Of a stretch of 64,000 nt of DNA, positions 22,869 through 24,607 are shown piece after piece. A program made the translations under genes and the position numbers. Source of the DNA: Escherichia phage FL12; the sequence record PP400786, one strand, 5' to 3'. Below the pieces are notes generated by a model that was not told where the DNA came from, did no database searches, and worked only from the letters and a program-made list of their open reading frames with translations. Each line of letters starts with the position of its first letter. Positions within the stretch are counted from its first letter, which is position 1.

Positions 22869-23798
22869 ATGTCAGGATATAATTCTCAGAATCCAAAGGA
22901 ACTCAAAGATGTCATTCTAAGACGTTTAGGGGCTCCAATTATTAATGTTGAGTTAACACCCGATCAAATTTACGATTGTATCCAGCGTGCCCTAGAATTA
23001 TACGGTGAATACCATTTTGATGGACTTAACAAAGGTTTTCATGTTTTTTATATAGGGGATGATGAAGAAAAGTACAAGACCGGAGTCTTCGATTTAAGAG
23101 GTTCTAACGTATTTGCAGTAACCCGCATTTTACGCACAAATATTGGGTCAATAACATCTATGGATGGAAACGCTACATATCCGTGGTTTACTGACTTTCT
23201 TTTAGGAATGGCTGGTATTAATGGCGGAATGGGAACGTCTTGTAATAGATTTTATGGACCAAATGCCTTTGGAGCTGATTTAGGATATTTTACTCAGCTT
23301 ACTAGTTATATGGGAATGATGCAAGATATGCTCTCGCCTATTCCAGACTTTTGGTTTAATTCAGCAAATGAACAGCTCAAAGTCATGGGAAACTTCCAAA
23401 AATATGATTTAATTATCGTAGAAAGCTGGACTAAATCATACATTGATACAAACAAAATGGTTGGAAATACAGTAGGATATGGAACAGTCGGTCCACAAGA
23501 TAGCTGGTCATTATCTGAACGTTATAATAACCCAGACCACAATTTAGTAGGTCGTGTTGTTGGTCAAGACCCAAATGTTAAGCAAGGCGCTTATAATAAT
23601 CGTTGGGTGAAAGATTATGCAACAGCTTTAGCTAAAGAATTAAATGGTCAAATTTTAGCACGCCACCAAGGTATGATGCTTCCTGGCGGTGTTACGATTG
23701 ATGGGCAGCGCTTAATAGAAGAAGCCCGATTAGAAAAAGAAGCACTGCGCGAAGAATTATACTTACTTGACCCTCCAGTGGGAGTGTTAGTTGGATGA
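22869..23798 (+). CDS. 13: Gene 13 neck protein
   Basis: 309 aa; synteny wac-13. Confidence 0.9.
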
Positions 23799-24607
23799 AT
23801 TATACTAAAATTTACGACTCTCTTATAGAAAGATCTCTTAAAAGAGGTCTTAATAAGAAAAAATTAGATTATTATACAGAATCACACCATATTGTCCCAA
23901 AATCCATGGGAGGAGATGATTCTAGAGAAAACAAGGTTTTACTGACAGCAAGAGAACACTATTTTGCACATGAGCTTCTTTTTAAAATACACCGAAATTC
24001 TGAAATGGCTTATGCTTTAATAAAATTCTCCAAGGGTACAAAAGAGCAGAGAATTGTAAGTAAAGATTACGGATGGATTAAAGAGGAAACATCTAAAATT
24101 AGATCAGAAACCATTAAAAAGTTTTGGGCGAATCTATCACCAAATTTAAAACAGGAACGAATTAAAAAAGCCGGAAAAGGCATTAAAAAAACTAAATCTT
24201 TATGGACAGATGAAAAGAGAAAAGAAGTTAATGCAAATATTCGAAAAGCTTCAGTGAAATATTTGGAATCGTTATCAGAAAACGAAATGTTAGAATATAA
24301 AGAAAGATGTTCTAAACAGATGAAAGATTTTTGGTCTGAGCTTAAAAGTGACCCCCAAAAATACGAAAAGTATTTAAATAAACTATCTAAGGGTCTTGCA
24401 AAAGTCGAAAAGAGAAATTGCCCGCATTGCGGAATTATATGTGATGTAGGAAATTATGGAAAATACCACGGCGATAAATGCAAAGTTATCACGGGTGTAT
24501 CTCATAGCAGAAAAAAATTAAAATGCCCGCACTGCTCTAAAATCATGGATAAGTCTCACGCTAAAAGATACCATTTTGACAATTGCAAATTTAAGAAGGT
24601 CGAATAA
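23795..24607 (+). mobile_element. Free-standing HNH homing endonuclease gene inserted between genes 13 and 14
   Basis: 270-aa ORF; HNH core ESHHIVPKSMGGDDSRENKVLLTAREHYFAHELLF; duplicated CPHC...H...C zinc-finger-like module at the C-terminus; lysine-rich; ATGA overlap with the gene 13 stop. Confidence 0.8.

Follow-up and report, generated by a model that had tools for sequence, protein, structure and literature searches.

Between genes 13 and 14 of Escherichia phage FL12 (PP400786), we identified a gene of 270 codons, predicted to encode an HNH homing endonuclease of the free-standing Mob type known from T-even phages. Its presence is best explained, with rather high confidence, by a selfish Mob-type free-standing homing endonuclease gene settled exactly at the 13/14 boundary of the late neck operon. 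The gene itself is already known, being annotated at the same site in T6 and about 45 other public genomes, and should be taken as a well-documented example and not as a discovery. At the level of sequence comparison, the analysis established the gene, the domains of its product, the limits of the insert, its patchy occurrence and horizontal movement, and the purifying selection acting on the gene, while the nuclease activity, the cut position, the mode of cleavage (nick or double-strand break) and the dimerisation of its product are those that we infer by analogy with its relatives.

The FL12 insert and its flanking genes

The window, i.e., the whole stretch of 64,000 nucleotides analysed, carries the endonuclease open reading frame (ORF) as a free-standing gene flanked by intact genes 13 and 14 (Table 1). 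Gene 13 and its T4 counterpart are equal in length and, after alignment, differ at 31 of 930 nt; every matching record labels the gene as neck protein or head-tail adaptor Ad2. Gene 14 is also identical in length to its T4 counterpart (771 nt), with 19 nt differences. The left junction reads ...GTTGGATGAATT..., in which the ATG of the ORF (23795-23797) overlaps the TGA stop of gene 13 (23796-23798) in the form of ATGA, and the right junction reads ...GTCGAATAATATGGCT..., in which the TAA stop (24605-24607) is followed by one base (24608) and the ATG of gene 14 (24609). In the T4 genome (NC_000866), a single nt separates the end of gene 13 (94553) from the start of gene 14 (94555). Compared with T4, FL12 has exactly 810 additional nt (270 codons), placed ahead of the TAA-T-ATG of T4. 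The initial annotation, made from the sequence alone, had described a 270-aa ORF with this ATGA overlap and a stop 1 nt before gene 14, had stated that reference T4 has no gene at the junction, and had pointed out an HNH core and a duplicated zinc-finger-like module; the arrangement of the ORF agrees with the sequence, the lack of a T4 counterpart with the T4 coordinates, and the two protein features with the profile scores given below and with the fit of both finger copies to CX2CX12HX3C.

On the opposite strand inside 23795..24607, no ORF of 50 aa or longer was found, and the Rfam scan of positions 22000-26000 detected no group I or II intron, giving one chance-level match only. Base composition was considered as a sign of foreign origin and rejected, since the GC content of the insert (31.7%) is nearly equal to that of gene 14 (31.6%; 38.3% for gene 13) and is thus uninformative on origin. 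The terminase genes 16 and 17 (26248... and 26726...) start 1.6 kb downstream of the endonuclease ORF.

Table 1. Positions in the window of the endonuclease gene, its parts and its flanking features
Feature	Position	Strand	Basis or remark
Gene 13 (gp13, head-tail adaptor / neck protein), upstream host gene	22869..23798	+	309-aa ORF
Recoded 21-nt gene 13 tail (GTGGGAGTGTTAGTTGGATGA); left end of the mobile unit	23778..23798	+	Fixed differences, insert-bearing vs insert-free
Shine-Dalgarno-like GGGAG, 10 nt upstream of endonuclease ATG	23780..23784	+	Read from sequence; putative function
Endonuclease gene, free-standing, 270 aa	23795..24607	+	ORF list; Mob-type HNH + I-TevIII-type double zinc finger
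N-terminal Mob-type HNH catalytic domain, aa 1-111	23795..24127	+	BLASTP to T4 Mob proteins; Pfam HNH_4
Lys/Glu-rich linker, predicted helical, aa 112-191	24128..24367	+	No significant family match
C-terminal putative DNA-binding module, aa 192-267	24368..24595	+	Colinear BLASTP match to I-TevIII
ZF1: C209, C212, H225, C229	24419-24481	+	CX2CX12HX3C
ZF2: C244, C247, H260, C264	24524-24586	+	CX2CX12HX3C
Right junction: AAGAAGG (SD-like, in last insert codons), TAA, 1-nt spacer, gene 14 ATG	24593..24611	+	Read from sequence
Gene 14 (gp14, head closure / neck protein), downstream host gene	24609..25379	+	771 nt

The insert is apparently a promoterless cassette. No TATAAATA was found on the plus strand between 16432 and 28554, no plus-strand terminator was detected inside the insert, and promoter-like sites in it stayed at the level of shuffled sequences without excess. 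This apparent lack of its own promoter and terminator matches the cassette mode, riding on the host operon, that has been described for mobA, mobC, mobD and mobE (PMC2988022).

Domain organization and relatives of the predicted protein

The N-terminal part of the ORF product gave 25.6 bits with Pfam HNH_4 at aa 25-52, above the gathering cutoff of 22, while the score with PF01844 HNH (17.9 bits) stayed under its cutoff of 21.4; the match to PHROG 655 'homing endonuclease' was E=3e-52, and neither Pfam nor PHROGs yielded a GIY-YIG match. The HNH motif includes H31, H32, N46, H55 and H59, the first four of which align, in the multiple alignment, with H26, H27, N39 and H48 of I-TevIII, and alanine mutants of these I-TevIII residues lose cleavage (PMC1865063). 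Each of the 7 distinct copies examined retains all 13 catalytic and zinc-ligand residues, 8 of which are zinc ligands. By BLASTP, the ORF product is similar to T4 MobD (46% over 117 aa, E=1e-30), MobB (35% over 217 aa, E=4e-32), MobE (42%, E=5e-23) and MobC (E=4e-14). The N-terminal ~110 aa of MobD, MobB and MobE resemble the FL12 protein, including MNYxKIY and ...HHI(I/V)P..GG.D..N.V.LT..EH..AH, and the T4 mob genes are, like the FL12 gene, free-standing and promoterless within a host operon. However, they are located at other loci and, after alignment, their products are without the CCHC zinc fingers; MobE is only 141 aa in size against 270 aa for the FL12 protein, and its gene has an internal terminator, none being found in the FL12 insert. 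The mobility of MobE is established by experiment and depends on its HNH motif, and MobE makes a strand-specific nick within nrdB, away from its own insertion point.

The C-terminal part of the FL12 protein resembles that of I-TevIII in BLASTP. It is colinear with aa 193-266 of RB3 I-TevIII (33% identity, E=2e-7) and also matches the I-TevIII relic of T4 (E=9e-7). I-TevIII, an intron-encoded HNH endonuclease of RB3 (Robbins et al. 2007, PMC1865063), has the same plan and about the same size (269 aa), with the N-terminal HNH followed by two C-terminal CX2CX12-13HX3C fingers, and C209, C212, C244 and C247 of the FL12 protein correspond to its C211, C214, C242 and C245. These motifs of I-TevIII bind zinc and are needed for DNA binding; the fingers bind the DNA target, the dimerisation determinant (aa 194-241) maps just upstream of the fingers, and the enzyme cuts as a dimer 14 and 16 bp upstream of its insertion site (PMC1865063). 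The two systems differ in that I-TevIII lies within the nrdB group I intron, whereas the FL12 gene lies between protein genes without intron signal. BLASTP gave no significant alignment of the FL12 protein with the catalytic and linker regions of RB3 I-TevIII, the N-terminal likeness being that of the HNH motif only, and the target of the FL12 enzyme, at gene 13/14, must differ from the nrdB target of I-TevIII. This I-TevIII type of the zinc-finger module had not been recognised in the initial annotation, which, being made from the sequence alone, could also not take account of the annotation of the gene at this position in T6 and many other tequatroviruses.

The same two building blocks are found in Mob-HNH proteins encoded between genes 45.2 and 46 (Escherichia phage F2, QIG57390.1; Klebsiella phages RCIP0020 and pzk-kv8), with ~30% full-length identity. 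These carry three CCHC fingers and a short linker, in contrast to two fingers and an 80-aa linker in FL12, and their genes lie at another locus, on the strand opposite to that of the neighbours. The length of the linker differs among the relatives in the multiple alignment, and the 45.2/46 proteins show the combination of HNH and CCHC fingers to be a widespread architecture in T4-like phages. Sequence search of the PDB gave only weak motif-level HNH matches (E of at least 0.08), with no solved close relative and with the HNH of a group II intron maturase among the weak matches (E=0.084), and the single-sequence AlphaFold2 model of the ORF (mean pLDDT 42.8) was unreliable and discarded.

The recoded gene 13 tail and the proposed mode of homing

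Gene 13 of FL12 differs from that of T4 by 8 substitutions in the last 21 nt, against the background of 31/930 (binomial P=2e-7), and this cluster is more than chance. The C-terminus of gp13 reads ...PPVGVLVG* in FL12 and ...PPFGILVG* without recoding (F->V, I->V). When fixed differences were surveyed in a panel of 13 genomes, 7 of the 212 polymorphic sites of genes 13 and 14 separated insert-bearing from insert-free phages, and all 7 are located in the tail (gene 13 nt 910, 912, 918, 921, 924, 927 and 929); gene 14 contained no fixed difference between the two groups. The database-wide test of the tail, by BLAST identity bands over the junctions, gave the same picture: all 46 insert-bearing records match the FL12-type tail junction at 3 or fewer mismatches in 63, and none of the 588 empty junctions matches the recoded tail, the nearest still having 7 mismatches in 60. 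The mobile unit, as delimited by these alignments, is the 810 nt plus the recoded 21-nt tail of gene 13. We propose that the recoded tail would be the immunity version of the endonuclease target.

The recoding also gives rise to the GGGAG sequence upstream of the endonuclease ATG, where the T4 allele reads TTTGGAATT, without GGAG. On the right side, the sequence from TAA onward does not differ from that of the native T4 junction, and gene 14 agrees with its T4 counterpart throughout its first 78 nt. Candidate signals for translational coupling are thus retained on both sides, i.e., ATGA and the new GGGAG upstream, and AAGAAGG and TAA-T-ATG downstream. Hairpins hiding the ribosome-binding site occur in other T4 endonuclease genes; RNA folding of the start region of the FL12 endonuclease gave no significant hairpin of this kind (z-score +0.73).

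For the selfish element favoured here, the following course may be drawn. Genes 13 and 14 would share their transcript with the endonuclease gene, whose translation would be coupled to that of gene 13 by means of the ATGA overlap and the GGGAG of the recoded tail. In mixed infection with a relative carrying the empty T4-type junction, the enzyme would bind close to this junction and cut there; the analogy to I-TevIII would place the cut most probably in the final ~20 bp of gene 13. The insert-bearing genome would then serve as the template for recombinational repair, by which the recipient would acquire both the 810-nt gene and the 21-nt recoded tail. The tail, with its 7-8 substitutions and the two replacements in gp13, would shield the carrier genome from its own enzyme, and the intact T4 TAA-T-ATG and the supplied AAGAAGG would preserve translation of gene 14.

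As to the way of cleavage, two readings were weighed. One, which we put forward tentatively and at less than even confidence, is a domain swap, in which the Mob HNH domain has been joined to the finger and dimerisation module of I-TevIII: the enzyme would act as a dimer and make a double-strand break ~14-16 bp upstream of the insertion, in the last codons of gene 13; the tail would serve for immunity, ribosome binding and the stop/start overlap; and the 13/14 junction would be a recurrent landing pad, occupied independently by HNH and Seg elements in different genera, and would locally drive marker exclusion between co-infecting T-even phages. The cut geometry of I-TevIII is not confidently transferable to FL12, because the N-terminal domains share no BLAST-level similarity, and a double-strand break is not assured, since MobE nicks one strand.

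The other reading, which we regard as rather doubtful, is the mode of MobE, i.e., a monomeric strand-specific nickase with its target elsewhere in gene 13/14 or further away, the tail then being an adaptation for expression or dragged donor sequence and not immunity. It is in line with the catalytic domain of FL12, which is of Mob type and not of I-TevIII type, and with the nick of MobE, which is strand-specific within nrdB and not at the insertion point; as characterised free-standing enzymes can cut at a distance from their own gene, a target outside the tail is conceivable. Both the stop/start overlap and the GGGAG that precedes the ATG by 10 nt do result from the recoding, and the tight linkage of tail and insert is expected even without immunity, because 7-8 mismatches per 21 nt join the non-homologous block in recombination, so that absent homology by itself predicts the linkage. 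However, GGGAG and TGA need just 2-3 of the 8 substitutions, and the C-terminus of the FL12 protein covers the segment mapping to the dimerisation determinant of I-TevIII (aa 194-241). In addition, no site of genes 13 and 14 outside the tail separates insert-bearing from insert-free phages, and with a target elsewhere in these genes the carriers would therefore have no protective polymorphism. The FL12 element could show whether the Mob domain combined with the dimerising fingers of I-TevIII turns a nickase into a double-strand cutter.

Distribution, mobility and the 13/14 landing site

A total of 46 phage records, T6 among them, carry this gene at the 13/14 junction, in most cases under the annotation "homing endonuclease", and the junction was empty in 588 of ~634 related records, the T4 junction being also uninterrupted; these counts are from a BLAST-based 2x2 test on the phage collection. 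Since only 46 of ~634 records carry the gene and T4 does not, the gene is an insertion and not a core gene. The initial annotation had seen in it an invasion of the neck operon keeping translational coupling on both sides, and this patchy carriage supports the invasion as the junction signals described above support the coupling; T4 and all its relatives were not found to share the gene, and an HNH profile match was present. In IMG/VR, exact-pattern scans for four junction types gave 0 for three test patterns including the insert-positive control and 1 contig for the T4-type control, the collection being too poor in tequatroviruses to inform. BYEP02, with ~77 extra nt at the junction, was considered as a remnant of the insert and rejected, as it has a T4-type junction with a tandem duplication that is probably an assembly artefact.

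The copy of FL33 (XAO17158.1, annotated 'homing endonuclease') is 100% identical to the FL12 ORF and that of T6 (KMB99_gp239, YP_010067306.1) is 98.9% identical, while the copy of 215Ecol030PP is annotated as 'putative mobile endonuclease'. The T6 gene (NC_054907 89574-90386) and those of ~45 Tequatrovirus records share with FL12 the ATGA overlap, the 1-nt gap to gene 14, the recoded tail of gene 13 and the length of 813 nt, at a nucleotide identity of 95.8-100%; nothing substantive differs except that the flanking genes 13 and 14 of FL12 are another mosaic. Our literature searches yielded no paper describing an endonuclease gene at the 13/14 junction, and the searchable literature holds no biochemical or genetic test and no cross for the FL12 protein or the T6 gene; Petrov et al. 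2010 merely count 3 mob-like HNH genes in T6. As a discovery the gene has little weight, being annotated already and composed of two building-block families that have been studied since the 1990s. Its value is that of a clean natural example, with boundaries known to the nucleotide, a linked recoded piece of the host gene, and identical copies in divergent backgrounds.

The inserts of FL12 and FL33 are identical (0/813), and yet their flanks differ at 57/909 sites in gene 13 (6.3%) and 28/540 in gene 14 (5.2%). In contrast, G9062 with the insert and G4500 without it, belonging to the same ICTV species, differ in the flanks at only 4/909 and 4/540. For several insert-bearing phages the nearest relatives of genes 13 and 14 are without the insert, and the nearest relatives of genes 13 and 14 of FL12 are the insert-free T4 and ECO07P1. 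The identical inserts in flanks of 5-6% divergence and the near-isogenic pair of G9062 and G4500 indicate that the insert has moved horizontally between genetic backgrounds, and recently. This natural pair, differing essentially by the element alone, provides a system for studying the self-protection of free-standing endonucleases.

Among copies up to 4% divergent, the dN/dS of the endonuclease gene was 0.05-0.18, and therefore the gene is under purifying selection. These results bear on the possibility that the endonuclease is an inactive or decaying relic, of which the ORF stays by drift or since clean loss would disturb the 13/14 coupling, a reading that we consider improbable. T4 does carry a defunct mobA and the relic of I-TevIII, and 1-nt indels split the ORF in the SHFML-26 / F1 / FN and CJY920 copies. 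However, the low dN/dS, the integrity of all 13 catalytic and zinc-ligand residues in the 7 distinct copies and the recent horizontal spread all argue against it, and the indels in these two or three database copies may reflect either decay or sequencing error, the latter because they are in homopolymer runs, one of them in an UNVERIFIED record.

HNH proteins assist terminases in HK97-like phages, and the gene product might thus be a domesticated protein for the virion or DNA packaging instead of a selfish one. The position within the operon for late morphogenesis, with terminase genes 16 and 17 following 1.6 kb downstream, and the supposed co-transcription and translational coupling with structural genes, would suit such a role, which we nevertheless judge to be very improbable: T4 and 588 of ~634 related records without the gene package DNA normally, the protein bears a zinc-finger module that is apparently of the sequence-specific DNA-binding type, and it is most closely related to the homing endonucleases of the Mob and I-TevIII groups, which occur at many unrelated loci, including 45.2/46, nrdA/nrdB and next to gene 39. 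The presence of a Seg-type gene at the same junction in a Mosigvirus, described below, also fits a landing site and not a functional partnership. For the selfish element preferred here, endonuclease-driven exchange in structural operons bears on the engineering and mixing of T-even phages for therapy.

The initial annotation had also stated that FL12 has no Seg-type ORF in the 23-24 and inh-uvsW spacers, where T4 carries such genes, and this statement proved correct. In T4 (NC_000866), segD occupies the spacer of genes 23 and 24, and segE that of inh and uvsW. The corresponding FL12 spacers are 83 nt (36571-36653) and 50 nt (41660-41709), so that no Seg ORF fits in either, and tblastn with T4 SegD and SegE detected nothing in these spacers, segD and segE being absent from the window. 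The T4 Seg queries match the window only at 8649-9446, outside the endonuclease ORF.

The Mosigvirus vB_EcoM_SQ17 carries at its 13/14 junction a Seg-like gene (QVW29313.1, 211 aa), with 37% identity of its product to T4 SegF and 32% to SegD, a match to PHROG 314 and a weak match to the I-TevI DNA-binding domain. It shares the landing site with the FL12 insert but belongs to an unrelated nuclease class, and it is inserted after the stop codon of gene 13, whereas the FL12 insert is placed before it. The SQ17 gene is packed with a 1-nt gap upstream and a 14-nt overlap downstream, and its initial codons (MATYY) duplicate those with which gene 14 begins.

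The endonuclease gene at the 13/14 junction and its product

The window derives from a Tequatrovirus, a T4/T6-like phage: in a search of the phage collection, T6 and its relatives matched the first 25 kb at 95-97% identity, with no identical record. Inspection of the ORF and sequence confirmed all the coordinates and junction details that the initial annotation gave for a putative HNH homing endonuclease gene between neck genes 13 and 14. The ATG of this ORF shares bases with the gene 13 TGA stop (GG ATGA, 23795-23798), a single base separates its TAA stop (24605-24607) from the gene 14 ATG at 24609, and no opposite-strand ORF of at least 50 aa lies within it. 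By base-by-base comparison with T4, exactly 810 nt (270 codons) are inserted directly ahead of T4's own TAA-T-ATG, and therefore the ORF ends on T4's gene 13 stop codon, the native junction into gene 14 being unaltered. T4 (NC_000866) has no gene at this junction (gene 13 end, 94553; gene 14 start, 94555); its segD separates genes 23 and 24, and its segE separates inh from uvsW. T4 SegD and SegE protein queries detected no Seg gene in the corresponding spacers of the window, which measure 83 nt (23/24, 36571-36653) and 50 nt (inh/uvsW, 41660-41709). Both statements of the initial annotation on T4 were thus correct, as was its reading of the two spacers. In the 23/24 spacer, where segD stands in T4, a T-rich run comes after a perfect GC-rich hairpin (GGGACCTTCGGGTCCC), and a TATAAATA box is located at 36619; the spacer resembles a compact terminator combined with a late promoter.

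Putative genes of the window considered in this analysis
Feature	Position	Strand	Product	Remark
Homing endonuclease ORF	23795..24607	+	270 aa	between genes 13 and 14
Second putative homing endonuclease gene, Seg-like	8628-9494	+	288 aa	directly after gene 5 (6878-8608)
ORF at hoc position	39551-40969	-	472 aa	T4 Hoc, 376 aa (1131 nt, NC_000866)

The proposed HNH core was recovered by profile search as Pfam HNH_4 (aa 25-52; 25.6 bits against a gathering score of 22), and the protein matched PHROG 655 ("homing endonuclease") at E=3e-52. BLASTP against T4's own endonucleases indicated that aa 1-111 are of Mob type (MobD, 46%, E=1e-30; MobE, 42%, E=5e-23), with further matches of the protein to MobB (35% over 217 aa, E=4e-32) and MobC (37%). 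In contrast to this Mob-type region, aa 192-267 matched the 97-aa I-TevIII relic of the T4 nrdB intron (E=9e-7) and are colinear with aa 193-266 of full-length RB3 I-TevIII (33% identity, E=2e-7). The duplicated zinc-finger-like module noticed initially is present in the C-terminus, both copies fitting CX2CX12HX3C (C209/C212/H225/C229 and C244/C247/H260/C264). I-TevIII binds one zinc ion per such motif, its C211/C214 or C242/C245 mutants lose DNA binding and cleavage, and its catalytic residues are H26, H27, N39 and H48 (Robbins et al. 2007, PMC1865063). In a multiple alignment these four align with H31, H32, N46 and H55, apart from which no N-terminal or linker similarity to I-TevIII was detectable, either in this alignment or by BLASTP against the RB3 enzyme. 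Taken together, the two types of match indicate a modular protein, with a Mob-type catalytic domain and an I-TevIII-type finger module. Both blocks also occur together, with three fingers, at the 45.2/46 locus of Escherichia phage F2 and Klebsiella phages, and the Mob-HNH plus CCHC finger architecture is widespread.

On the + strand no exact T4 late-promoter box (TATAAATA) was found from 16432 to 28554, promoter-like and terminator-like sites were at shuffle level with no + strand terminator within the insert, and the endonuclease start region showed no significant RNA structure; the gene is thus predicted to be a promoterless cassette in the late neck operon. Such a mode without an own promoter has been described for mobA, mobC, mobD and mobE (PMC2988022), MobE being likewise encoded by a promoterless cassette. 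GGGAG, absent from T4, stands 10 nt ahead of the endonuclease ATG and is made by the recoded end of gene 13, and AAGAAGG, from the last codons of the insert, stands 9 nt ahead of the gene 14 ATG; the sequence fits the putative translational coupling on both sides that the initial annotation proposed.

Distribution, the recoded gene 13 tail and the mobile unit

A 2.5-kb query (gene 13, ORF and gene 14) matched 515 phage records, only 46 of which carry the insert (about 38 after removal of RefSeq copies of GenBank entries). The ORF-only query returned the same 46 records, at 95.8-100% identity and always between both neck genes. Among them are FL33 and FL34, with copies 100% identical to that of the window, phages isolated on Shigella, Salmonella, Yersinia and Citrobacter, and phage T6 (KMB99_gp239, annotated "homing endonuclease"), for which three mob-like HNH genes have been counted (Petrov et al. 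2010). One submitter had already stated similarity to T4 "mobile endonuclease D", and our literature search found no paper describing or testing the gene. The gene is real and was correctly interpreted by the initial annotation, yet it belongs to a well-known class and had been annotated before. In the T6 record (AP018814 / NC_054907, 88648-89577), gp13 is named 'aerobic NDP reductase large subunit' in AP018814, a label copied from a mislabelled SHFML-26 entry (RefSeq note) and thus an annotation error, not biology.

We compared eight insert-bearing phages (window, FL33, T6, G9062, 215Ecol030PP, sutha, RPN226 and pSe_SNUABM_01) with five insert-free ones (T4, Sf24, ECO07P1, RB51 and G4500). 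Among 131 polymorphic sites in gene 13 and 81 in gene 14, only 7 (counted before G9062 was added) had no allele common to both classes, and all are confined to the final 21 nt of gene 13 (nt 910-929 of 930). This tail is GTGGGAGTGTTAGTTGGATGA in insert-bearing phages (gp13 C-terminus PPVGVLVG) and TTTGGAATTTTGGTAGGTTAA or a close variant in insert-free phages (PPFGILVG); upstream of it, polymorphisms assort freely between the classes. A synthetic empty junction with the insert-type tail detected 588 uninterrupted junctions, all with at least 7 mismatches in 60, and the real 63-nt tail-plus-insert junction detected exactly the 46 insert-bearing records, each with at most 3 mismatches. This distribution supports an insertion, and the tail-insert association is perfect across the whole phage collection. 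Restriction of class-specific sites to the tail, together with this linkage, delimits the moving unit to about 831 nt, made up of the recoded 21 nt and the inserted 810 nt.

Mobility, selection and the proposed homing

The insert shows 0/813 differences between the window and FL33, against 57/909 in gene 13 and 28/540 in gene 14, and the nearest panel relatives of the window's genes 13 and 14 are the insert-free T4 and ECO07P1. G9062 (with insert) and G4500 (without), both from German manure and placed in one species, differ at only 4/909, 4/540 and 4/574 flank positions. Among copies diverging by at most 4%, dN/dS was 0.05-0.18, and the seven distinct copies inspected keep all 13 catalytic and zinc-ligand residues. 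These results speak for an element that is active and has been spreading recently. The gene, its domains and boundaries, its patchy distribution, horizontal transfer and purifying selection are shown by the analysis. That the gene is an inactive relic is unlikely, being contradicted by this selection and spread. The copies of SHFML-26, F1, FN and CJY920 appear split; ORF-splitting 1-nt indels in homopolymer runs were confirmed in SHFML-26 (A7 to A6 at nt 391) and CJY920 (one A added at nt 563; record UNVERIFIED), and may represent early decay of a selfish gene or sequencing errors. A packaging-associated HNH protein is very improbable, since most related phages lack the gene and its own homologues, sited at unrelated loci, are homing endonucleases.

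We propose that in mixed infection the fingers of the enzyme would recognize the empty T4-type junction, a cut would be made nearby, repair off the carrier genome would copy insert and tail into the recipient, and the recoded tail would make the carrier genome resistant. The cut would lie within the terminal ~20 bp of gene 13, because of the I-TevIII analogy and because genes 13 and 14 hold no other class-specific polymorphism. Tight tail-insert linkage is expected in any case, because the tail is too mismatched for recombination inside it. This linkage would equally arise if the protein were a MobE-like nickase with another target and the tail served purely for expression, a variant reading within one class of element that we regard as plausible but less probable; MobE itself nicks rather than cuts, and acts away from its own gene. 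What the 13/14 element still offers is a cleanly delimited unit and a near-isogenic pair of natural phages, which would make cleavage and immunity directly testable.

Gene 14 of G9062 (NC_054920; 2315-2872 of the examined region) is annotated as 558 nt versus 771, and the 2.5-kb query hits this phage in two pieces spanning ~55 extra nt, suggesting that gene 14 carries an insertion or frameshift a short way downstream of the endonuclease gene.

Other endonucleases and neighbouring observations

The 13/14 junction of Mosigvirus vB_EcoM_SQ17 (2074-2709 of the examined region) is occupied by a Seg-type endonuclease gene unrelated to the HNH gene (211 aa; 37% identical to SegF; PHROG 314). With the HNH gene in tequatroviruses, the boundary has therefore been colonized at least twice. 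The SQ17 endonuclease begins MATYY, copying how gene 14 begins (MATYD), and gene 14 restarts as MSTYN with a 14-nt overlap, an arrangement that looks like the mirror image of the recoded tail on the gene 14 side.

The Seg-like ORF after gene 5 has a TATAAATA box at 8604 and matched T4 SegF (32% identity, E=3e-8) and also SegA in tblastn. The length of the ORF at the hoc position suggests that the window's head decoration protein has extra repeat domains. Escherichia phage BYEP02 (OR757454; about 1400-1760 of the examined region) has a T4-type junction with the first ~77 nt of gene 14 in tandem duplicate and a gene 13 fragment repeated upstream; its neck genes are annotated as fragments in a 154.7-kb record, and the duplication is probably an assembly artefact.
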